Shown here piece after piece: positions 1,417-43,960 of a stretch of 64,000 nt of DNA (the first letter of the stretch is position 1; each line of letters begins with the position of its first letter). A model generated the notes under the pieces. It worked only from the letters and a program-made list of their open reading frames with translations, was not told the origin of the DNA and ran no database searches. Source of the DNA: Cyanidioschyzon merolae (taxonomy: Eukaryota); assembly GCA_000091205.1 (NCBI GenBank), contig AP006502.2; one strand, given 5' to 3'. The position numbers and the translations under genes are program-made.

Positions 1417-3186
1417 CTAGTGGGGCTTTGCATCGCTCTGGCGTGCCGCTGAGGCCATCACGTCTGAATGTTCCGTCGAGAGGCGCTGCTGCGAAGCGAC
1501 TTGTTGCAGACGCTTCTCAATGAGTTGATTAAACTCCTCTTTGAAGGCGGAAAAGTTCTGCATTGACGTGCGCGCCACCCTGCGACAAAAATCAACGTCC
1601 GATGGTGCAATCACCACTGAGAGGCGCATTCGAGATACATCAATACCGAGGCGGCGCAGATAGAGTAAACGAGGTGCAATACGATCACGCAGCGAGTACG
1701 AGAAAACGGCCGGAAACTCGAGCACCTTCTTCGTATCCATGTTCATGACAGAGCGGAGGAATTTCAGTTTTGGTTGAATGTCTGTGTGGATATCATAAAC
1801 AAGCAGGGGTGGCAACCCACGAACCATCGTGGCGACATCTGCGATTCCCCAGTCGCGCAACAGTGCGACGACTGGCATTGCATTCCGGTCAATGTCCAGG
1901 GCCAGCAGTGCCGGGAACGCGCGGTACGCTTTGTTCAGATCGTCGGTAGTAAGGCCGAGATCGCGCAGGAACTCTGTGACGCGCTCAACTTGTGTGAGCG
2001 ATAAAGTCAGGCAGCGGGGATATGAGCGAACCATGGCCGCGATGCTCTTCGACGAAAGTTGGATACTTGCGTTCAGAAATTCTTCGATCGCTTGCATCTG
2101 TCCAGTGTCCGTTCGCAATATCTCGGGATGCGCGTAAACGATCTGGCGAATATACGGCGCAAAATTCAGTTCAAGGCAGGAACAGAGATGCTGCACAGCG
2201 GCTGCCGCAGTTTCCATTGGAAAATCAGTCAACAGCCAGGGTGCACGCGGAAACAAGCGTCGGAGAATATCGCTTGAAGGCTCAAAGCCGCAGCCCTGCG
2301 GCGGATTCTGGACCAGAAATGTAAGCATGGTCTCGAGCTGCTGGCAGTCGCAAAGACGACGCTGCGCCTGCTCCAAGAGCAGAAGCCGCACTAATTGGGC
2401 AGTGTCAAGACCAAAGCGTCGGAGCTGCCGGAGCTGTTCGCTCTGATTCTCTGGAATAGAGCACCATACTTCGAGGGGAATCATCGGATCCATCAAGAGG
2501 TTCCAGCATTCGGCAGCAGTGATGGAGCTCGCGGAAGATATTTGCTGTACAGCAGCTCCAAGTTGTTTCGCTGTCTCCACCTCGAGGCTCTTCATGTCTC
2601 TTTCGAGCAAAGCTTGCAAGTTCGTCGGTGTACATCCAAAAGCCGCCAAGTATTCTAGCGCGGAAGGCCAAGTTGCCGGAACCGGTTGCAACGCGATTTG
2701 TTCCACGATATCGCGTGCGAGGCCGTAGGCGCATAGGGCTCGAACAAAAGCTTCCGCGGTGCCGTGAGCAAGCTCTGGAGCGTTCGTGTTCCATGAATCT
2801 TCCCCTGATACCTGCGTAAAGATGCGCGACACCTCTGGACTCTCAACTGGAGTTTCCGTGGCCTGATTTTGTGCTTTCTCGTGAGTCTGTGGTTCCTTTG
2901 AAGGTGTTCCTCGCGACCGAGTCTTTAGAGCCACCGCAAAGCGTCCAATGCGCTTGGTCAAATTCTGGAAGAGGTCACGAGCGCGAGATGCTTGATTTTG
3001 GTCACTCTGGGGGCCACCATTGTTCCCGAAATGGCAGCATGTGTCGATGTACACGGATGCGCGGTGTGGTCGTTTGCGACTAACGGGAACAAGCGGCGCA
3101 TAGCAGCTACGAGCGCCTCGGGAACAGTCCCATCGCTGTAGAGGCACCCACAGCACAGTTGACGCAGCTGAGGCTCCTGAAAACAT
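1417..3186 (-). CDS. mTERF-family protein (mitochondrial/plastid transcription termination factor-like), 589 aa, ATG start
   Basis: Continuous 589-aa ORF starting at a true ATG (revcomp of 3184-3186). Repeated mTERF-type motifs are present: FLRDLGL, YPRCLTLSL, FPALLALDI, LPPLLVYDI and EFPAVFSYSLRDRIAPR. The family assignment comes from motif recognition only. Confidence 0.7.
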   Translation of the reverse strand: MFSGASAASTVLWVPLQRWDCSRGARSCYAPLVPVSRKRPHRASVYIDTCCHFGNNGGPQSDQNQASRARDLFQNLTKRIGRFAVALKTRSRGTPSKEPQTHEKAQNQATETPVESPEVSRIFTQVSGEDSWNTNAPELAHGTAEAFVRALCAYGLARDIVEQIALQPVPATWPSALEYLAAFGCTPTNLQALLERDMKSLEVETAKQLGAAVQQISSASSITAAECWNLLMDPMIPLEVWCSIPENQSEQLRQLRRFGLDTAQLVRLLLLEQAQRRLCDCQQLETMLTFLVQNPPQGCGFEPSSDILRRLFPRAPWLLTDFPMETAAAAVQHLCSCLELNFAPYIRQIVYAHPEILRTDTGQMQAIEEFLNASIQLSSKSIAAMVRSYPRCLTLSLTQVERVTEFLRDLGLTTDDLNKAYRAFPALLALDIDRNAMPVVALLRDWGIADVATMVRGLPPLLVYDIHTDIQPKLKFLRSVMNMDTKKVLEFPAVFSYSLRDRIAPRLLYLRRLGIDVSRMRLSVVIAPSDVDFCRRVARTSMQNFSAFKEEFNQLIEKRLQQVASQQRLSTEHSDVMASAARQSDAKPH

Positions 3187-4902
3187 AACTAAGCACCAAC
3201 AACACCACCTTCGAATTGCGCGTGTACAGGTCAGCGTGGGTTAATCGTCTGGCACCCCTCCCCCATAGCGCCCCAGCAGCGAGAAGAAGCTCACCGAGCA
3301 GTTTCCCTTCGGCAGGAGCCCCGCCAAGCGCTGCACAGATCCGCTCGCCTCTGGCACCTCTGACGCCGCAGTCGGTGCCGTCGCCTGCGCACAGATCAGG
3401 CGTGACGCGTCGTCCGATCGGTGCAACGTTGACACCCGGGACGGGTGAACACGACGCCGGTGCACGCGACCTGCTGGAATCTGCAATGACGCTGGGATCG
3501 ATGCCGTCCCCCGGAAACCAAAAGCATCTGTATATCCTGGAGCGTCTAGGCATGCTCATCAATAAAGCATTAATAGTTGTCTTTTCCATGGCGCCGCGGT
3601 TCTTAGCTGGCGACATTCCTCGAACTGCGGCGCGTCGCCACCTGCACATCCCCGTTTTCGGGGAGTTTCTTGTCACATGGATACCTGCTAATCGAAGAGA
3701 TTGCGAACGATTTTGCTTCCAGGGCTAGCGAGAGAGAGTCGAATCTCACCAGAGACCACTCGCTTCGTTGGGGTCTCGAGTAGCCAGGCCACCGTTCTCA
3801 CTGGAAAGCATTTACCGCCAAGAAGAAATGGCAGTCTGGTTCATGGCATATTTCCTAGAATGGGGTCGTTTTGTGTACGGTCTACGTTCCCGTTAATCGT
3901 CTTGTGCATCAGGCTTTGTTTCTCTCTCTTCTTGTTTATCTGTAAAAGAGCAGACACCACCCAGTAACTGGCAACTAGTAAAATAATGTATTTCCCCTAT
4001 ACAGTAAGAAATGAAAGACAGGAAAGTTTTGCGCACGTTCGAAAGTTCAGGTTCAGGACGGAAGATCCCGCGAGCCGTATGATTCTATCGAGCTCGTGCC
4101 TCACGTGATCCACACTGGCGGGTGTTGTGGCGAGACCTGCGCACCTCGTCCGCAAAGCAGTCCTTTTCTGGAACGAGGAGTGCGCTGCCTGCGCCAAAGC
4201 GTCGTCCCGGTCGCTGAGGTCTCCCGACATGTCGTTTCCGGCCGCTGCCGGTTCCAGATCTATGAGAACGTCCGGCTGGATCCCGAATTGACATTGAAAT
4301 CCCAGCCCGTATCGAGTGCACCATACCTCGACCAGACGCCCCAGCGGTATGGGAAAGCCAATCCGTCTCCGTGCTGTATCGGCAACGGCGCGACTAGCGC
4401 TGAACCGGACGCTCCCAGCAGGCTCGGTGTCGGCGAAACGTACTAAATAACCAGCATCTTGTAGAGACTGTACGGGTGGTGGCAGCTGAAAGAATTCGGA
4501 GCTAGGGTACGAAATGATAGACGGTTTCCCACTTGCTGACGTCCATCTCGAAATCGCAGGGACCCCTGGTCCATTTTTTTCACTGACAAACCGTTTACAT
4601 AGGCCAGCGTTCTCCGATTAGGCGCATTTTTCTTTTCTTACTTTTTTCTGTGTTTTTTTTCAGTGCGCGGTGAGGTATCCATCAATCACCTACCTCCGAG
4701 TTACATTACACCCCTGGTCCATGCGAACCTCCTGCCGATCAGAAATCATGCGGACACGTCACCTGGCGGCGCTTCAGTTGAACACGTGTGCGTGTGCGCG
4801 CGAGGCTGCGTTTGACCGCGAGCGGCGGCGCGCGGCCGTAAATCCCGCACGATGCGAACGTTTTTCCCCAGACGTGTTCGTGACTACAAGGCACGTTTCA
4901 AG

Positions 4903-28877: not shown

Positions 28878-29588
28878 CTAGCGCGGTTCAACGTGATTTT
28901 TTGCGCTGCGCTTTCTCGCTATCTGCTGAGCATCCAGCTCATGATCGCTGCTGGATGCAGTCGCGCTTAGGCACACGTCCACAGACGAAGCGTTTCGCCT
29001 TTTCCGACGACGCCTGAACCACACATTTCTCCGCTGAACGTCTTCGCAGAGCAGAGCAAACCATGCGGGTAGGGTACCCTTATCTACTGCACGGCTCTCT
29101 TCGCTCGTCAGCTTCGCATCAGCGGGTTGCGCGGCGTTGGTCGCCGGCTCGTGCGACAAAACTTTATCGTTTGCGGGCGCGTATCGCAGCGCCTCCGACG
29201 AGACTGCCTGCTCGGGAGCGCTGCAAACCGGAGCGTCTTCGCTTTGCAAAGGACCTTGTGCTGTGCGCGGCGAAGTAACAGACGGCGTCGACGTGCTCTG
29301 TGGTGAATTGCTCCACAAAGACGCAGTAAAGTCCATCTTCTCCGAAAACGCTCCAGGTTTTATGCCAGTCTGACAAGTCAGACAAAGAGCTGTCTCATAT
29401 GCGACTGGCACCTGCTCGCAGCGCTCGCACAACGGCAGCGCTGTCACGGACGAACCCAGCGGCTGCGACGCACTTCGCTGCGCAAATGAATCCCAGCAAC
29501 CATCGCAAATACAAGACTCTTGACAGTATTTGCGAGCAACTGCTTTATTGCAAGTTTCACAGAGTACCTCACAAGTTGCGAGCCGCAT
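28878..29588 (-). CDS. Hypothetical cysteine-rich protein (possible zinc-finger)
   Basis: The track's start is a GTG, and the first ATG is at revcomp 29586-29588. Paired Cys clusters are CETCNKAV...YCQESCICDGCWD and CERCEQV...CLTCQ. No family was assigned. Confidence 0.25.
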   Translation of the reverse strand: MRLATCEVLCETCNKAVARKYCQESCICDGCWDSFAQRSASQPLGSSVTALPLCERCEQVPVAYETALCLTCQTGIKPGAFSEKMDFTASLWSNSPQSTSTPSVTSPRTAQGPLQSEDAPVCSAPEQAVSSEALRYAPANDKVLSHEPATNAAQPADAKLTSEESRAVDKGTLPAWFALLCEDVQRRNVWFRRRRKRRNASSVDVCLSATASSSDHELDAQQIARKRSAKNHVEPR

Positions 29589-29744
29589 TAAAGCATTCCA
29601 GGCGTCTCTTGAGCGTGTTCGTCTCACAAACGAAAGTTCGCCAGCGCCCACGCACGAAAAAGCCCTCGTGGCAGCGGTGCACTGCAGTGGCGATCGCCGC
29701 GCTCTGGACTAGACATCACCAACTTACGCGCAGACGCCTCGCAG

Positions 29745-31590
29745 TTTTCTTGGACCGTCCACCCACTACTACTTACAACTTTTTCTCATATAGTTCGACT
29801 TGTAGAGGTTGTCCAACTAAGTTCTTTCGTGTCCAATCTGGAGGTCTTTTCTCCACCACCGCACATCTCCGTATTGATTGCGGCATGAAAGCCTCGATTC
29901 ACGAATTCCATCCGTTTCTTGCCATCGTTGGTTGTACTGACCAATGCAAGCGATCCTCGAACTTTCGCCCTCCTTTCCATTAGCTCTTCCGTCAGAGGTC
30001 CGTACTTTTTTATATCCTCAGGGTTCCGCTGACACTTTTCCATCTCGACCCTCTGAAGTGTACAACCCAGCGCGTGGTGTGTATATGATGCTCGAAACTC
30101 ATCTATCGGTATTGTAACGAAACGCCGTGCACACTCCTTGTATACCCTCGTCGTTGGAGCTGGAGTAGTCCTTTTTGGGTCTTCCATCGCCCTGCTCAAT
30201 ACGCTACTACGAGCATCTGACTTTCATCCTCCTATAGGGCGCTCAACTGATTGAAGAAATTCGCGAACGCCCGCTGCTTCCCACAGTACAAATTCAATCG
30301 CAAACGAGCCCACCGGGGCTTTGTATACTCCTCCCACAGCGCATCCCAATGCGCAATGCGAACTTCCATGAATTTCCGAAAAAGCTTCAAAGTCCGCTTC
30401 TCGGCTCGTCACCTCGCTCAAAGCTGCCAGGTGCTCTTTCACTCCTGCGTTCCAAGTCTCAATTTTCTTTCTCGCATTCATCATGCCGGATTCTCGATAG
30501 TATCTCGCTCTCGGGAATCTCAACAGACGCATTTCTCTCTGACGTAAGTTGCCGTTGATACAATCTTCCGCACGCTTTGGTGCTTCAATGGTTATGATAT
30601 TTGTGTTTCCGGGTTCCGCGCGGAAGGTGCCAGATAACGACTTTGTCGTTGGCGCGGACCCCGGAAACACAAATATCATAACCATCGGTGCTCCCAAGCG
30701 CGTGGAAGATGGTGCTGACGGCAACTTACGTCAGAAAGCCATGCGTCTTCTGAGATTATCGAGAGCGAGATACTATCGAGCATCCGCTATAATGAATGCG
30801 AGAAAGAAAATTGAGACTTGGAACGCAGGAGTGAAAGAGCACCTGGCAGCTTTGAGCGAGGTGACGAGCCGAGAAGCGGACTTTGAAGCTTTTTCGGAAA
30901 TTCATGGAAGTTCGCATTGCGCATTGGGATGCGCTGTGGGAGGAGTATACAAAGCCCCGGTGGGCTCGTCTGCGAATGAATCTATACGGTGGGAGGCAGC
31001 GGGCGTTTGCTAATTTTTTCAATCAGTTGAGTGCCTTGAAGGAGGATGAAAGTCAGAGGCGCGTAGTAGCGTATTGAGCAGGGCGCTGGAAGACACAGAA
31101 AGGGCGTTCACCAGCTCCAACGACAAGAACGTACAAAGAGTGTGCACGGCGTTTCGTTACGATACGGGTAGAGGAGTTTCGAGCATCGTATACACACCAA
31201 GAGCTGGGATGTACACTTCAGAGAGTGGAGATGGAAAAGTGCCAGAGCAGCCCTGAGGAAATAGCAAAGTACGGATCGCTGACGGAGGAGCAAATGGAAA
31301 GGAGGGCAAAAGTTCCAGGACTTCTTGCATTAGTGAGTACAACGAGTGACGGCAAGAAGCGGATGGAGTTCGTGAACCGAGACGTTAACCCAGCTATCAA
31401 TATCAGGAAGTGTGCGGTGCTGGAGAAAATACCTCCAGCGTCGACAAGAGAGAACTTTGTTGGACAGCCTCTCAAAGTCGAACTATATGAGAAAAAGTTG
31501 GAAGCAGTAGTGAGTGGCCTGTCCAAAAGACCAGGAGGCGTCTGCACCTCAATTGAAGACTTCTTGTCTAGAGCGGGTTTCTCGCCACTA
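29745..31590. mobile_element. Palindromic head-to-head pair of 5'-truncated Fanzor/TnpB-like (IS200/IS605 OrfB-type RuvC nuclease) elements
   Basis: The central ~30 bp per side is a perfect inverted repeat: 30589-30616 (ggttatgatatttgtgtttccgggttcc) is the reverse complement of 30657-30684, across a ~40-bp asymmetric spacer. Each arm of ~0.9 kb then encodes, reading outward, a RuvC-I-like motif (VGADPGNTNIITIG), a degenerate Zn-finger region (VTI..EFRASYTH..LGC...CQ) and a RuvC-III motif (KRMEFVNRDVNPAINI). Arm ends near 29745 and 31590 are marked by antisense ORFs 29399-29983(+) and 31218-31976(-), which share the string LDRP.TT..NFFSYSST.RGCPTKF. Confidence 0.65.
29786..30637 (-). pseudogene. 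Fanzor/TnpB-like nuclease, minus-strand copy, more degraded
   Basis: Reading in reverse complement gives ...TFRAEPGNTNIITIEAPKR... (RuvC-I D to E). Frame breaks fall at ~30224 and 30199, then ...TRVYKECARRFVTIPIDEFRASYTHHALGCTLQRVEMEKCQRNPEDIKKYG...GKKRMEFVNRGFHAAINTEMCGGG (RuvC-III DV to GF), stopping at 29786. Confidence 0.5.
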
Positions 31591-31662
31591 CTGTACCACT
31601 GGCGACGTTCGACTTTCGAACGGCGTTCGATGGAAAGGGTGTTATTGGCCCTAGCTTTTTGA
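30639..31662 (+). pseudogene. Fanzor/TnpB-like nuclease, plus-strand copy, RuvC-I to C-terminus, interrupted
   Basis: Frame 0 runs 30639 to ~30950 (DFVVGADPGNTNIITIGAPKR...NARKKIETWNAGVKEHLAAL...). It shifts to frame +1 (…RQRAFANFFNQLSALKEDE…), hits an in-frame TGA at 31075-31077, then continues ...TYKECARRFVTIRVEEFRASYTHQELGCTLQRVEMEKCQ...GKKRMEFVNRDVNPAINIRKCAVLEK… to the stop at 31662. The aspartates of RuvC-I and RuvC-III are retained. There is no N-terminal WED/REC region. Confidence 0.55.
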
Positions 31663-31677
31663 GTTTTGATAACGGTG

Positions 31678-32409
31678 ATGAGTCGCTCTGTGTGGTTCGA
31701 GAAGCTGCGTGCTGGCATCGGTACGGTCGCGACGCCGCTGCCGCTGCCAAACACCGCGATTCGACGCAGCCAGAGTTGGAGCCGTCGGTTTGTGGCGCGT
31801 ACGATTGTCGCATTTATAACAGTAGCTGGTTTGGCAACCATAGCTTGGCACTCAAGTTCTTGGCGAGAGGCTGTGTTTCCCACGAAAGTGTTCTCGCAGG
31901 CAAGCACAGAGGCAGCCGCAGCGGCACCCGATACAGCACGAGCGGCACCAGGGTTGCCGCGGACAATGCTCACCAAAGCACCGGGAAAGATCCCTTTCCA
32001 GGACGAGAAACCGCCAACCAGGGCAGAGCTCGGTCGAGCGGGATGGACGCTTCTTCACTCGATAGCGGCAAACTATCCAGAGGTGGCCACACCAGAGATG
32101 CAAACCCATGCTCGTCAATTCATTGCATCTTTTGCCGCGCTTTACCCGTGTCCGACCTGTCGAGAGCATTTCCAGGGATACGTGCGAACCCATCCACCTG
32201 CATTAGAATCCCGAGAGCAATTCGTGAAATGGTGCTGTCGTGCACATAACGCGGTGAACCTGCGTCTGGGGAAACCCACCATTCCCTGTACAGATTTGCA
32301 ACTACTCGACAAACGCTGGCGCGACTGCCACTGCGACGAGCAGGAGCCCCAGAACATGATCCGCGCTGCACGGCGCCTGATCGAAAGCCGCCGCCCAAAC
32401 GCCGGTTAG
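31678..32409 (+). CDS. Erv1/ALR-family FAD-linked sulfhydryl oxidase with N-terminal membrane segment
   Basis: The C-terminal domain reads ELGRAGWTLLHSIAANYPEVATPEMQTHARQFIASFAALYPCPTCREHFQGYV...REQFVKWCCRAHNAVNLRLGKP, which gives the Erv1 CxxC pair and the W..H / HN.VN signature. The start is placed at the first ATG (31678) after the track's TTG and is uncertain, and the 5' end abuts the Fanzor arm. Confidence 0.65.
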   Translation: MSRSVWFEKLRAGIGTVATPLPLPNTAIRRSQSWSRRFVARTIVAFITVAGLATIAWHSSSWREAVFPTKVFSQASTEAAAAAPDTARAAPGLPRTMLTKAPGKIPFQDEKPPTRAELGRAGWTLLHSIAANYPEVATPEMQTHARQFIASFAALYPCPTCREHFQGYVRTHPPALESREQFVKWCCRAHNAVNLRLGKPTIPCTDLQLLDKRWRDCHCDEQEPQNMIRAARRLIESRRPNAG

Positions 32410-40524: not shown

Positions 40525-42885
40525 TCATGGTGAAGCGCCTGCAATCTGTGCGAGATTCGCATGACAGTCACGCTCAGAAGGGAGTGCATCACGCTCAGAG
40601 GCAGCTGTTGCTACCTTTGACGTCAACGCATCAATCTGCCGAAACTGCCACGGCCAGCGAATATTATATAGAAAAGGCCGCAGGTCAAAGCGATTGTCTT
40701 CGGGGCTGTAATTCTCACAGTGTACACTTGGCGTAAGCACCGTCATCTTATGGCGATTCACTGAATACATTCGAAAGAAGAACTTCACCTTCTCCGCAAC
40801 TTGCGACGGCGATAAATGCGCCTTCCACAAACGACTTAGCCTTTCGTACATGGAGACGGGTCCACAGCGCCCAATTTTCCGCAAACGCCCGTATACGGTG
40901 AGTTCCGCATAGGTCATGCCCATATCGGCCTCATCCGTCTGGACATATTCGCCAGTGATGGGTTCGAGTTCGGCGGTTGGCGGCGCCTCCACGACCTGCT
41001 GGAGGGTCTCGAAACCCAGCTCGTGCACCGCCCAGAGGAGGAAACGACGTAGGTCGTGCTTGGAGATGCCTCCAATAGGATTGATATCCGCAGAACTGGC
41101 ATCGTACTTGGTGAGATATCCACGCAGGGCCTCGTCGACGTTGGCGGATCCGAGCACCAGCAGCGTTCGCTGGCCATGGCCGCGAGCCCACGGCAGCAGC
41201 TGAGCAAAGAGATAGCTTAGCACCATTCGTATCCGCGCCTGAATATTCTGGAGTGCAGCATTTTCTACCGCGCTCCCGCCTTGGACTCGAAAACGCGGTC
41301 TCTCACCCGCAACCAGCGTAAAGACGCTGAGCACTGCAGCAACGACCGCATCGATCGGCAAATCCAGATGATATGCTCCAATTTCTTTCGCCAGTTGAGC
41401 TGCGCGTTCCCGTGTGGCTCGGCTCGAGTTCTCGCTCCGCATGTAAGCTGTATGGAGAATTCGAGACGCAAACTCATGAGCGTCCCGAGGAATGTACGCA
41501 TCTGCTGCGTTCTCCGTCAATTCAGCATCCGTACCTAATCCGAGAATGCGACGCGCCTCCCTGATGACGTGATCATTCCGCTGTTGGGCCTCGACTGCTA
41601 CCAGGCGACACATGGACGCCACAATCGTTGCCGTCGCTGAGCTATCTGCACCGCCACTCAACGGGAGAAAGAAACCGCTCGCGCCACTTCTCCGCAAATA
41701 GTCCCAAAGCCAACACGCCGGTCCATACGCGATCTCCTCCTCGGCAGAGAGCAACCGTACCGGCACTGGTTGACTCGGCATGTACTGCAGCTGCTCACCG
41801 TCAGAGAGAACAAGCCGGAACGACCTCTCCGATGGGTCAACAGAAGCCGGAACAGCTCGTTGCGAAGCGTCGCCAATGAATGCTGGACTGAATGCGCATC
41901 CCGTTGGCATCCCATCGATCCGTCCAGCGATATCCTCATGCCGCAACGATACGCTACGGCCTGCAGCATCGATGCGCGGCACGGGCGCCGTCGACGCTGC
42001 CTGAACGCCACGGCTGGCGATCGCGATGCGGTACGCAGTGATCTCGTCGAGATCGATGGTTGCGGTAATCACTTCAACTTCATCAGCGATTGAGAACTGT
42101 GACGCTTGGGCAACAATCTCACCGTTGATACATATAAGTGCACATCCATCGTAGTAGAGCCGTCCACCATCGCAACCCTGCTGGTTGGCGTAGAGGTAGG
42201 CACCGCCGCCTTTAGCCGTTGCACTTCGCAACAGATCGATACGTTGGTTTAGTTTCCGCAGGTTGTGATGCGACCCACTCCCATTACCGATGATATCACA
42301 GCCATTGAGGCTGTAGCGTATATGAGGAGCGTCCGGGGTGAAGAGCTCTTCACAGGTCTCGCTGGCGACAACCACGCCGCCGATATCGAGCAACGCTTCG
42401 CCGAAGAGCGTTTCCGCTTGCGCACCAGCTGCGACTTGACGAACACAGTCTGGGAGCGGGTACTTTTCAAGTGCTCGTCTACCATTGGCCGGCCATGCTG
42501 TAAACCAGCGAGACTCTCGATAGTTCCCGTCGTCTGCTAGAGCGAGCTTGGGTCGAATCAGAAGGATCCTGCGGTTCAGGAGCAGCACACGACAGTTGTA
42601 GGCTACGTGTCGGTGGAGAACAGGTGCACCCAGGTCGACCAGGATGTCATCTGTGTAGCCTCTCGCGATGATCTCCGCAATAACCTCCCAGCTATGGACG
42701 AAAGTGTCCGGCTCCAGAAAGTGATCCTCGCACCCGTAGCCACTGACTTCTAGTTCTGGACCGAGACGGTAGCGTGCTCCAGCCTCTCTGGCCCGAGCAA
42801 TCGAGCAGCATATTCGCTCCAGGTTACCAGCAAAATCCAGTGACCACTGGTTCAGGTTACAAGTCGCCACCCGAACAAGTCGCAT
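40525..42885 (-). CDS. NADSYN1: Glutamine-dependent NAD+ synthetase (Qns1/NADSYN1 type: N-terminal nitrilase/CN-hydrolase domain + C-terminal NAD synthetase domain)
   Basis: ATG at revcomp 42883-42885, 786 aa. The N-terminus MRLVRVATCNLNQWSLDFAGNLERI is typical of Qns1. The ATP pyrophosphatase motif is FLPLSGGADSS. The protein is collinear along its length and single-exon. Confidence 0.9.
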   Translation of the reverse strand: MRLVRVATCNLNQWSLDFAGNLERICCSIARAREAGARYRLGPELEVSGYGCEDHFLEPDTFVHSWEVIAEIIARGYTDDILVDLGAPVLHRHVAYNCRVLLLNRRILLIRPKLALADDGNYRESRWFTAWPANGRRALEKYPLPDCVRQVAAGAQAETLFGEALLDIGGVVVASETCEELFTPDAPHIRYSLNGCDIIGNGSGSHHNLRKLNQRIDLLRSATAKGGGAYLYANQQGCDGGRLYYDGCALICINGEIVAQASQFSIADEVEVITATIDLDEITAYRIAIASRGVQAASTAPVPRIDAAGRSVSLRHEDIAGRIDGMPTGCAFSPAFIGDASQRAVPASVDPSERSFRLVLSDGEQLQYMPSQPVPVRLLSAEEEIAYGPACWLWDYLRRSGASGFFLPLSGGADSSATATIVASMCRLVAVEAQQRNDHVIREARRILGLGTDAELTENAADAYIPRDAHEFASRILHTAYMRSENSSRATRERAAQLAKEIGAYHLDLPIDAVVAAVLSVFTLVAGERPRFRVQGGSAVENAALQNIQARIRMVLSYLFAQLLPWARGHGQRTLLVLGSANVDEALRGYLTKYDASSADINPIGGISKHDLRRFLLWAVHELGFETLQQVVEAPPTAELEPITGEYVQTDEADMGMTYAELTVYGRLRKIGRCGPVSMYERLSRLWKAHLSPSQVAEKVKFFFRMYSVNRHKMTVLTPSVHCENYSPEDNRFDLRPFLYNIRWPWQFRQIDALTSKVATAASERDALPSERDCHANLAQIAGASP

Positions 42886-43389
42886 CTTCCGTGCAGCGCT
42901 CGCTCTGGAGCACCGGACGTCCAGTAGCGAGGGTCGTCGCCTTGAACTGCACGCCGTTCCGTTCCTCTGCCGGACGGGCGAGCGTCACCGAGCACACCAG
43001 AGCAGACCTAGAATGCTGGACTACACGAATAGAACAAGAGATTCCTGGCGATATCGTCGGTTTGCAGCACAACAGCAGTATTGGCAACTGCGCAGCAAGT
43101 CAGTATGGTGTACGCGCACGAAAACGAGCGAGCGTCCCCGGGAACGTAAACTTGTCGTCCATCACCAGGGTAGAGACGAGCTGTGTTTACTTGGTATATG
43201 TTTATGTGACGCCGTCAATCATGTCCATAAAATGCTTATCTGGGGCGTAGCTTCGGGTCTGTATGTCTAGAGGCATGCGGTCACGGGAGCGAAAACGTTT
43301 CGCGACCATGTAGGGTGCATGAATAGCTATCCGCAGACGCTTTTCAGCGTTTTTTGACCGGCCCGCAGCTATCCGCTTCAGCTTCTACT

Positions 43390-43960
43390 TGTGTTCTTTG
43401 AACCTGAGAGGCTACCCCACGAAGTGAGATTGCGTCAGCTCCACGGGTCTCGTCTTCAGCATCGCGTATCCTATGATATTGATGGCGGTGTTGAAGCCTC
43501 TGTTCACGAACTCAATGCGTTTATTGCCTCTCGTCACAGCTTGTATTGTGTCGAATATTCAATTCGAAAGACGAATGAGCCTCTCTTTGTGGTCATCAAC
43601 GAAACTGCATTCCGTAGCAGCATGATACCGCTGACGGGATTTGCCACAGTACGCTCCCGTCTTTTCTGTTTCCAGCGATAAGAGCCTGGAACTTGAGTCA
43701 TCGCAGCGATCGCTTTTGCCGGGGCATGCGTCACCGCTTGGAACAAGGCGAGCGTAGACGGATCGATATTTTTCGATCTCTTCTCCAATCTGGATTTCCT
43801 TTCCGCACTTGTTTCATCACGCACAACATCGCGTTCCATAACACCCCTATCGAATGGAACAGCGTGGGCTTGCCCAGCGCGAACAGGCAAGCGTTCACGC
43901 GCCACAGAGCAACCGTCTGAGGAGCTATGGTGAACACGTACCAAGACCTGACCTCACTCA
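43390..43960 (+). repeat. Diverged partial copy (D) of the 1.07-kb repeat family, direct orientation
   Basis: 43700-43900 aligns to copy A 7780-8000 at about 75% identity, with agtcatcgcagcgatcg, gcatgcgtcaccgcttgg and gcgagcgtagacggatcga. Its ORFs 43391-43681(+) and 43534-43944(-) resemble copy A/B ORFs at the protein level (DET..ERKSRL...DPS.LA..QAVTHAP..IAA.T.V). Confidence 0.45.

Follow-up and report, generated by a model that had tools for sequence, protein, structure and literature searches.

Fanzor1 proteins are TnpB-like, RNA-guided RuvC nucleases of eukaryotes that are borne on transposons. For Cyanidioschyzon merolae, a red alga, the element CMe-1A has been described as a family of ~150 copies that are ~3 kb in size and devoid of TIRs (Bao and Jurka, 2013; PMC3627910). 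An interspersed repeat of 3.2 kb, present in 253 copies and carrying a truncated, WSV486-related ORF, was reported from the same organism, together with its transcription (Nozaki et al., 2007; PMC1955436).

The window studied here, a stretch of 64,000 nucleotides from C. merolae strain 10D (contig AP006502.2 of assembly GCA_000091205.1), contains a near-palindrome that consists of two Fanzor1 copies in head-to-head orientation. Its arms (minus arm, ~29640-30621; plus arm, ~30622-31635) can be aligned over ~980 nt with 83-91% identity, depending on the block, around a centre of 30 nt, and a chance resemblance is thereby excluded. An assembly artefact can be ruled out as well, since the 10D genome is finished and the palindrome recurs in independent metagenome contigs. 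The palindrome sits in unannotated DNA flanked by CMT646C and the ERV1 gene; the 10D annotation lists no gene between BAM83412 and BAM83413, and both of these proteins, together with BAM83414, have exact matches in the window. The limits of 29786-31662 given for the pair in an initial annotation of the sequence are those of open reading frames and not those of the arms. The relevant features are:

28878-29588, minus strand: host gene CYME_CMT646C (BAM83412); its ATG (29588) lies ~50 nt past the 3' end of the minus arm, co-oriented with it
29640-30621, minus strand: minus arm, a 5'-truncated CMe-1A Fanzor1 relic that spans RuvC-I to the 3' terminus of the element
30622-31635, plus strand: plus arm, a 5'-truncated CMe-1A Fanzor1 relic that starts at codon 443 of the 722-codon relative L023:3243-5411
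31678-32409, plus strand: ERV1 sulfhydryl oxidase gene of the host (BAM83413), co-oriented with the plus arm and starting with an ATG (31678) ~45 nt past the arm's 3' end
43325-43603, minus strand: third family fragment, far more degenerate, with ~90 C-terminal codons left and 38-43% protein identity

Assignment of the arms to Fanzor1 and CMe-1A

The two copies had initially been called Fanzor-like, and this assignment is borne out by both profile and fold: the family is Fanzor1. When the repaired protein of the plus copy was searched alone, no match was found in Pfam, NCBIfam, or the PDB (phmmer), and a shallow family profile of 20 sequences retrieved nothing meaningful from the PDB; only a deeper profile from a representative search succeeded. 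With a profile built from 40 diverse relatives, the solved Fanzor1 structures were matched in the PDB (PpFz1, 9cf0, E=1.5e-19; SpuFz1, 8gkh, 4.9e-10; GtFz1, 9cer, 5e-4). An AlphaFold model of the relative P0130 (pLDDT 85.9) matched SpuFz, PpFz and GtFz over its own full length (E ~1e-16, TM 0.5-0.7), whereas Fanzor2 and Cas12 were reached only at E ~1e-4 with a TM near 0.2. The Pfam family PF26935/DUF8286, which is listed for some relatives, was unmatched in our local Pfam copy.

Full-length relatives of the arms thus share with SpuFz1 (8GKH), PpFz1 (9CF0) and GtFz1 (9CER) the fold and the RuvC motifs DPG, (D)EFRT and NRDxNAA, and D/E/RDxNAA is invariant in the family alignment. However, the red-alga relatives are only 12-15% identical to the solved proteins, their lineage lacks, as judged by eye, the CxxC...CxxC cysteines between RuvC-II and RuvC-III, and the copies in the window are, unlike the solved nucleases, truncated pseudogenes.

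We found 209 relatives, the best of which are 75-85% identical, while the arms show 87-89% identity to the family consensus. The limits of the element, as derived from 80 loci, define a unit of ~3.3 kb with a sharp 3' end. The arms are relics of the CMe-1A element, and hence of a family that was already known: organism, protein family, size, the absence of TIRs and the predominance of old, diverged copies are all alike, and there are no differences at the family level, the arms being two of its copies. These relics also fit the 3.2-kb repeat of Nozaki et al. (2007). Specific to this locus, as compared with the available text of the two published accounts, are the pairing of copies in head-to-head orientation, their symmetric truncation on the 5' side, the exchange between the arms and the position ~50 nt upstream of both genes.

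Truncation and lesions of the two arms

In strain 10D, the plus arm reads VGADPGNTN at RuvC-I (Asp codon 30657-30659), VEEFRAS at RuvC-II (Glu codon 31174-31176) and NRDVNPAIN at RuvC-III (Asp codon 31381-31383), and its RuvC D/E/D triad is intact. The minus arm reads FRAEPGNTN (Asp to Glu at 30614-30616), IDEFRAS and NRGFHAAIN (Asp to Gly at 29891-29893), so that the triad positions are E/E/G. Relative to the family consensus, the plus arm carries an additional T (+1) within a T5 run (30890-30894), and the mirror +1 frame change is found in an A5 run (30379-30383) of the minus arm. A TGA codon (31075-31077) interrupts the plus arm in frame at the position of a conserved Gly (GGA) and has its counterpart in the minus arm (30196-30198); a 1-nt indel between the arms is a deletion in the minus arm (~30172). 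The initial annotation had recorded the RuvC-I and RuvC-III motifs of both arms, the frame change in the same relative region, the TGA of the plus copy and the indel, and each of these is real. It had overlooked a -1 deletion in the plus arm (near 31521-31525) and, in the minus arm, a TAG (30232-30234), a -2 deletion (~29871) and a further stop (29773-29775); nor had it noted that the copies together make up a single inverted repeat around the 30-nt centre.

A further oversight concerned the extent of the copies. The arms start only at RuvC-I, and hence both are 5'-truncated: each of them lacks the first ~2,280 nt of the ~3,290-nt element (~69%) and can be aligned only with positions 2283-3244 and 2301-3192, respectively, of a reference copy (81-82% identity). 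At least 442 N-terminal codons of the 722-codon intact ORF are missing, and a complete, uninterrupted ORF with the N-terminal domains is absent from both arms, which start at residue 443 of 722 and contain frameshifts and stops. All three family copies in the window, the two arms and the fragment at 43325-43603, are truncated at their 5' ends. The plus copy had been considered nearer to function; with this loss of at least 442 codons, neither arm is anywhere near it.

Could one or both of the copies nevertheless still function, the breaks being removed by short introns, by recoding of the TGA, or by correction of a sequencing error? The D/E/D triad kept on the plus arm and the conservation, in both arms, of the string around the TGA are in keeping with this idea, to which we assign next to no probability. 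In intact relatives the codons continue without interruption across both breaks (...DFEAFRKFMEV... and ...VVAYGAGRW...), so the frame breaks are lesions and introns offer no rescue; introns are in any case reported for only 0.5% of the C. merolae genes (PMC1955436). Furthermore, the frameshift recurs in independent environmental contigs, where it is accompanied by additional, different stops, and the 10D annotation, as noted above, places no gene here. Both arms are ordinary pseudogenes, as had initially been proposed, and represent relics of Fanzor1 members rather than functional members. Nuclease-coding capacity is gone from both of them, and the two Asp residues that survive on one 10D arm are incidental. 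As such, the finding matters little: the arms are two of ~150-250 decayed copies of a reported family, and Asp retention is without functional consequence.

Origin of the arms and probable exchange between them

The differences between the plus and the minus arm (dN 0.093, dS 0.352, ratio 0.26) resemble those between random pairs of family copies (median dN/dS 0.27). Third codon positions account for 60 of the 118 differences (51%; p=6e-5), again as in random pairs, although composition-dependent mutation, or ectopic conversion by other copies of the family, may have inflated this bias. A family-wide dN/dS of ~0.27 between copies points to a long-lived coding lineage under selection. Over the outer 524 aligned positions, identity between the arms is 78.6%, and in a ranking of 66 copies the opposite arm comes 60th and 17th; the apparently shared derived sites in this part are common family polymorphisms. 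The similarity of both arms ends at the element's own 3' terminus, and the arms differ in their indel types and in their terminal hairpins:

29643-29690, minus strand: region of the 3'-terminal hairpin in the minus arm, which is of the long type and whose stem differs in sequence
31603-31625, plus strand: hairpin at the 3' terminus of the plus arm, belonging to the short 'B' type, CGACGTTCGA-CTT-TCGAACGGCG

Because of the family-like divergence, the end of similarity at the 3' terminus and the different hairpin types, we infer from sequence comparison that the arms are probably separate insertions rather than one duplicate decaying, and that sequence has been exchanged between them since. The asymmetric decay proposed initially consequently holds only in part. 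Plus (D/E/D) and minus (E/E/G) arms do differ in 10D, but the divergence bears the mark of purifying selection and does not fit duplicates of one ancestor, and the asymmetry depends on the allele.

The competing account, in which a single dead, truncated copy was duplicated in inverted orientation through fold-back or hairpin-primed repair and the arms then decayed unequally, would readily explain why both arms begin, to within 30 nt, at one coordinate of the element, why they have the +1 frameshift and the TGA in common, and why they are each other's closest relatives over the inner 329 nt (92%). For two insertions followed by random deletion, such a match in truncation is unexpected; by a rough estimate, breakpoints within 30 nt would arise by chance in ~2% of the cases. 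A dead copy should, however, diverge neutrally, which is at odds with differences shaped by selection, and the outer halves are no nearer to each other than random family members. The duplicated unit would also have to stop exactly at the transposon 3' terminus on both sides and to have acquired terminal hairpins of unlike types. The shared defects, moreover, are located within conversion-like identity tracts, and the TGA is missing from the plus arm of other alleles. In our view, inverted duplication is therefore improbable, and we favor separate insertions followed by exchange.

Recombination between inverted repeats is well known from the flip-flop of organelle inverted repeats and from the yeast 2-micron plasmid, and arm-to-arm conversion occurs in sex-chromosome palindromes. 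The locus studied here resembles such systems in that arms which have otherwise diverged share a tract of perfect identity, and in that the segment at the centre occurs in either orientation among alleles:

30304-30481, minus strand: left half of a 178-nt perfect inverted identity (partner 30792-30969), holding the shared +1 frameshift
30622-30651, plus strand: 30-nt single-copy centre, coding in 10D for KVPDNDFVV of the plus copy and inverted in L003, L006 and L012, which are environmental contigs
30792-30969, plus strand: right half of the 178-nt perfect inverted identity (partner 30304-30481)

It differs from these systems in that the arms are unrelated insertions of ~80-90% identity and do not form a maintained functional repeat, and in that the inversion is known from metagenome contigs. 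Since contigs of this kind may join co-existing strains into chimeras, the evidence from inversion and from the mosaic alleles (L006, L011) is weakened. We interpret the 178-nt identical block as a tract of gene conversion or crossover. In L003, the centre together with the spacer is inverted, which places the Glu variant on the right-hand copy and leaves the left-hand one with the Asp; the longest inverted identity in this contig amounts to 66 nt and falls short of the k of 141 that its name implies. The contigs L012 and L013, unlike L003, end inside the 178-nt identical block, and the orientation of the centre may be arbitrary there. At position 31075, L003, L004 and L007 have GGA where both 10D arms have TGA, and L003 has a TGA in place of CGA at position 31378. 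Hence, the asymmetry in Asp retention between the arms is allele-dependent.

Taken as a whole, the account that we consider likely is that of two dead CMe-1A relics that inserted separately and later underwent symmetric 5' loss and arm exchange. Two elements from different sublineages would have inserted independently, each ~50 nt upstream of a start codon in the divergent pair formed by CMT646C (left) and ERV1 (right), and co-oriented with its gene; the head-to-head layout would then result because each element is co-oriented with its own gene of the divergent pair. A later event may have deleted the 5' two-thirds of both copies, at almost matching element coordinates and 30 nt apart, so that the near-palindrome of ~2 kb remained; this would require a palindrome-centred or another symmetric process. 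Gene conversion could subsequently have generated the 178-nt identical block, which holds the +1 frameshift of both arms, and the TGA patch, an arm-to-arm crossover could have inverted the centre, and private lesions would then have built up on each arm. The order of these events, and how the symmetric deletion came about, are our inference; as regards the order, neither empty-site nor single-arm alleles turned up. More generally, the 'duplicates' of a palindrome can be separate insertions that were partly homogenised later, and therefore the shared frameshift and TGA are no proof of common descent.

Placement upstream of host genes and the 3' end of the element

CMe-1A elements show a positional bias with respect to host genes. 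In a survey of environmental contigs (rather than of the 10D genome itself), the element was followed past its 3' end by a co-oriented first ORF (minimum length, 120 amino acids) at 34 of 41 loci (~32 of 38 without duplicate loci), as compared with 11:16 for the control on the 5' side. About 20 of these co-oriented downstream ORFs start within 125 nt of the element, and at some loci the ATG is positioned only 10-35 nt from the element end, e.g., that of KTI12, whose Pfam match begins at residue 1. According to Pfam, the downstream ORFs represent diverse host genes. Neighbouring family copies at other loci are arranged head-to-head (six cases), in tandem (four) or tail-to-tail (one); an excess of head-to-head pairs is too weak a claim by itself, and placement upstream of genes explains the arrangement better.

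From these positions, we tentatively propose, at somewhat less than even odds, that CMe-1A elements, instead of being scattered at random, integrate or persist specifically ~10-125 nt upstream of the start codons of host genes, in co-orientation with them, their 3' ends, the expected guide-RNA part, becoming 5' UTR or promoter. The palindrome would then reflect a hit on both members of a divergent gene pair, and transcription of CMT646C and ERV1 may now start within its dead arms. If the placement holds across the 10D genome, it would provide a testable lead on site choice or survival of Fanzor elements and on promoter donation in a very compact genome.

A related idea, compatible with separate insertions followed by exchange, is co-option by the host: CMT646C and ERV1 would obtain their promoters or 5' UTRs from the outward-facing 3' ends of the arms, or a hairpin RNA would be made from the palindrome. 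This is conceivable although rather doubtful. Both ATGs lie ~45-52 nt from the arm ends in the co-oriented direction, the same geometry recurs family-wide, and the transcription of the repeat cited at the outset (Nozaki et al., 2007; PMC1955436) is in line with it. The Rfam matches at the centre of the palindrome are generic hairpins (MIR5084, mir-5350), that to MIR5084 falling, at 36.7 bits, far below the gathering score of 110. C. merolae is not known to possess an RNAi machinery, which would count against such a use. A scan for sigma-70 promoters and terminators returned nothing beyond shuffled sequences; these models are of the bacterial type and uninformative in a eukaryote.

In a Fanzor1 element, an omega RNA would be expected to be encoded at the 3' end, in overlap with the end of the ORF. 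The 3' ~240 nt of CMe-1A are conserved and foldable. RNAalifold kept three pairs when applied to the full alignment of the element 3' end; a 53-pair model is 89% paired, yet its covariation does not exceed that of slid controls, and lineage-specific compensatory stems were seen in the terminal hairpin only. As the carrier transposon, a non-autonomous Helitron2-like element was considered, which would be expected to have a 3' subterminal hairpin, neither TSD nor TIR, insertion after a T-run, frequent 5' truncation and an autonomous partner that encodes RepHel. What was observed in CMe-1A is a hairpin at the 3' terminus, a T-rich run ahead of the 5' end of six copies, and the 5' truncation of all three copies in the window.

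The inverted repeat between CMT646C and ERV1

The ORFs beside the two Fanzor-like copies are exact matches to three proteins of Cyanidioschyzon merolae 10D, the third being mitochondrial ribosomal protein S7 (BAM83414); since the accession numbers run consecutively, the approximately 2 kb between CMT646C and ERV1 are unannotated intergenic DNA. Both copies are arms of a single inverted repeat around a 30-nt unique centre. Each arm is co-oriented with the gene it faces, the minus arm ending about 50 nt from the CMT646C ATG and the plus arm about 45 nt from that of ERV1.

Features of the locus (window positions; arm blocks are minus arm against plus arm)
28878-29588, minus: hypothetical protein CYME_CMT646C (BAM83412), exact protein match
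29589-29640: gap between minus arm and CMT646C
~29643-29690, minus: minus-arm 3' hairpin, long type with another stem
29681-29740 against 31535-31594: arm block, 72% identical
29750-29870 against 31406-31526: arm block, 85% identical
29872-30175 against 31099-31402: arm block, 83% identical
30170-30621 against 30652-31103: arm block, 91% identical
31603-31625, plus: plus-arm 3' hairpin, short type, CGACGTTCGA-CTT-TCGAACGGCG
31636-31677: gap between plus arm and ERV1
31678-32409, plus: ERV1 sulfhydryl oxidase (BAM83413), exact protein match
43325-43603, minus: third fragment of the same Fanzor1 family, C-terminal and highly degenerate

The motifs quoted in the initial annotation, the in-frame TGA, the frame change and the 1-nt indel are all present as described there, and a codon-wise comparison revealed further lesions.

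Lesions called codon-wise against the consensus of 65 family copies, itself an open frame
Plus arm, 30890-30894: +1 T in run
Plus arm, 31075-31077: TGA (Gly in the family)
Plus arm, near 31525: -1
Minus arm, 30379-30383: +1, same as plus arm
Minus arm, 30232-30234: TAG
Minus arm, 30196-30198: TGA, same as plus arm
Minus arm, ~30172: -1
Minus arm, ~29871: -2
Minus arm, 29773-29775: stop
Minus arm, substitutions: RuvC-I Asp to Glu, RuvC-III Asp to Gly

Of a 3,291-nt reference copy, the arms cover just positions 2283-3244 and 2301-3192, from the nuclease motif RuvC-I onward, so that both lack the entire N-terminal part of the protein; the plus arm starts at the equivalent of residue 443 of an intact 722-residue environmental ORF (L023:3243-5411), just before RuvC-I D454. 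Together with the frameshifts and stops, this confirms that both copies are pseudogenes, and it removes the proposed distinction of the plus copy as nearer to function. Nor do short introns rescue the frames: intact relatives read DFEAFRKFMEV and VVAYGAGRW uninterrupted across the two break points, so the breaks are mutations, and introns are given for only 0.5% of C. merolae genes in the genome report (Nozaki et al., 2007, PMC1955436). Neither copy is near function or rescuable.

Immediately N-terminal to RuvC-I, some relatives (P0001, P0005, P0011; columns ~400-640 of protein alignment A2; element positions ~2157-2305 of L031:2150-5440) carry a variable number of ~25-aa tandem repeats (KxEExKEAxPAxQxVxDNDxVV), and the truncation point of both arms coincides with the 3' edge of this array. 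A search of the palindrome centre (30585-30687) against Rfam gave only sub-threshold matches to plant and animal miRNA precursors (MIR5084: 36.7 bits; gathering score 110); we rejected a miRNA there as a generic long-hairpin effect.

Membership in the Fanzor1 family CMe-1A

Searched alone, the repaired protein found no match in Pfam, NCBIfam or PDB. It has 209 relatives, mostly from JGI metagenomes (best 75-85% identity), and searching 1.84 billion representatives with a profile yielded 1,366 relatives, many with lengths of 600-700 aa. A profile built from 40 diverse relatives, in whose alignment D (DPG), E (EFR) and RDxNAA do not vary, matches the solved Fanzor1 proteins PpFz1 (1.5e-19), SpuFz1 (4.9e-10) and GtFz1 (5e-4), and one relative, modelled with AlphaFold (pLDDT 85.9), resembles SpuFz, PpFz and GtFz (E ~1e-16, TM 0.5-0.7), with Fanzor2 and Cas12 far behind. 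Collectively, these matches uphold the Fanzor-like assignment. By eye, no CxxC...CxxC cysteine pairs occur between RuvC-II and RuvC-III of the red-alga lineage in alignments A2 and A3, whereas PpFz1 and SpuFz1 have a zinc-binding segment at this position. In Pfam, a few more distant relatives matched Cas12f1-like_TNB no more than weakly (E 0.002-0.07). Nuclear localisation signals are reported for Fanzors, and the K/R-rich N-termini of the full-length relatives P0089 and P0130 (RKKTNTKRKRIEKE, PPKQKRK) resemble such signals by eye.

The transposon family is already known, and the window copies are in its ordinary state of decay. Bao and Jurka (2013, PMC3627910) list a single Fanzor1 family, CMe-1A, for C. 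merolae, with ~150 copies of ~3 kb, each ~80% identical to the consensus and some intact, for which their account gives no TIRs or TSDs. The genome report lists a 3.2-kb interspersed repeat with 253 copies, whose truncated ORF is similar to WSV486 from white spot syndrome virus (Nozaki et al., 2007, PMC1955436), a virus listed with one Fanzor1 by Bao and Jurka (PMC3627910). Across 80 near-full-length metagenome loci, the element measures ~3.3 kb and has a sharp 3' end; ORFs exceeding 700 aa occur in only about two. The environmental copy L023:3243-5411, uninterrupted and with D454/E626/D695, would be, judged by its sequence, a candidate active Fanzor1 of Cyanidioschyzon. The copy-to-copy dN/dS of ~0.27 indicates a long-lived selected lineage.

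Origin of the arms and probable exchange between them

Over ~975 aligned positions, identity is 84% between the arms, against 89% and 87% between each arm and the family consensus. Across the outer 524 aligned positions their identity is 78.6%; in a ranking of 66 copies the opposite arm comes 60th and 17th, and the apparently shared derived sites are polymorphisms common in the family. Neutral divergence would be expected after in-place duplication of a dead, truncated copy; the arm differences fall 29/29/60 on codon positions 1/2/3 (p=6e-5), and the arm-arm dN/dS of 0.26 (dS 0.35) is indistinguishable from that of family copies paired at random (median 0.27). Moreover, arm similarity ends at the element's own 3' terminus, with unrelated flanks beyond, and the 3'-terminal hairpin and indel types differ. 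From these identities, the codon-position bias, the dN/dS, the shared terminus and the hairpin types, we conclude that the arms very probably represent two separate insertions from different sublineages. Of the proposed asymmetric decay of the two copies, the residue asymmetry stands for the 10D allele; the implied reading as duplicates decaying unequally does not.

In 10D, the arms match perfectly in inverted orientation over 178 nt (30304-30481 and 30792-30969), a block that holds the shared +1 frameshift and most inner shared derived sites. Orthologous contigs from other samples have the same junction, flanks 95-100% identical and a different centre. Three of them, L003, L006 and L012, have left and right exchanged for the 30-nt centre and for the 24 innermost arm-diagnostic sites; L004, which covers the right arm alone, agrees with them there. 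This swap is an inversion of the centre; chimeric strain assembly is a possible source. For L003, whose contig name implies k=141, the longest inverted identity is 66 nt, too short for its orientation to be ambiguous through an unresolved repeat; for L012 and L013, the centre orientation may be arbitrary. L006 and L011 show additional mosaicism. In L003, the right-hand copy carries the RuvC-I Glu variant and the left-hand copy Asp; its plus arm has GGA (Gly) for TGA at 31075, and CGA is changed to TGA at 31378. Since Glu/Asp and stops are thus distributed differently, the D/E asymmetry is a feature of the 10D allele, and the 10D plus-arm TGA is most simply read as copied from the minus arm.

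Element termini and placement upstream of host genes

The 3' ~240 nt of the element are conserved. RNAalifold kept three pairs there; a 53-pair model was 89% paired, with covariation no better than in slid controls, and lineage-specific compensating stems were confined to the terminal hairpin. Every copy ends in this hairpin, whose stem varies by sublineage with pairing kept (AACGTTTTTC/GAAAGACGTT versus CGTCGTTCGA/TCGAACGGCG; L031:5385-5440, L047:4490-4545, L077:4530-4585 and both window arms); it may act as a signal for transposition or form the last stem of the guide-RNA scaffold. At all six full-length 5' ends examined (L031, junction ~L031:2150-2200; L069, L089, L098, L047, L073), a T-rich run (TTTTTCRG) precedes the conserved start ATGACAAAACG. 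The T-rich run, the 3' hairpin, the missing TIRs and the frequent 5' truncation hint at a Helitron2-like carrier; the account of Bao and Jurka (PMC3627910) leaves the class undetermined.

In the 3' flanks of metagenome loci L022-L101 (ORFs >=120 aa), the first ORF past the element is co-oriented with it in 34 of 41 loci (~32 of 38 without duplicate loci), and about 20 of these first ORFs start <=125 nt from the element end, the ATG often lying 10-125 nt away. By Pfam they are unrelated host genes (methyltransferase, M18 aminopeptidase, KTI12, amine oxidase, aldehyde dehydrogenase). On the 5' side, the nearest ORFs split 11:16. The 3.2-kb repeat is called 'distributed randomly' in the genome report (Nozaki et al., 2007, PMC1955436); the site directly upstream of host genes is a side observation that deserves a whole-genome check. 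A divergent gene pair such as CMT646C/ERV1, if hit twice, would yield head-to-head copies. Such placement does not explain why both arms are truncated symmetrically at the 5' end, at breakpoints that lie 30 nt from each other; we infer that a palindrome-centred deletion could have produced this.

In environmental contigs, further head-to-head CMe-1A copies or fragments lie upstream of the main copy at L023, L075, L083/L095, L097 and L099, those of L075 being two nearly full-length copies 128 nt apart. The third fragment in the window (43325-43603) lies ~440 nt upstream of, and co-oriented with, the NAD synthase gene (40525-42885, minus).
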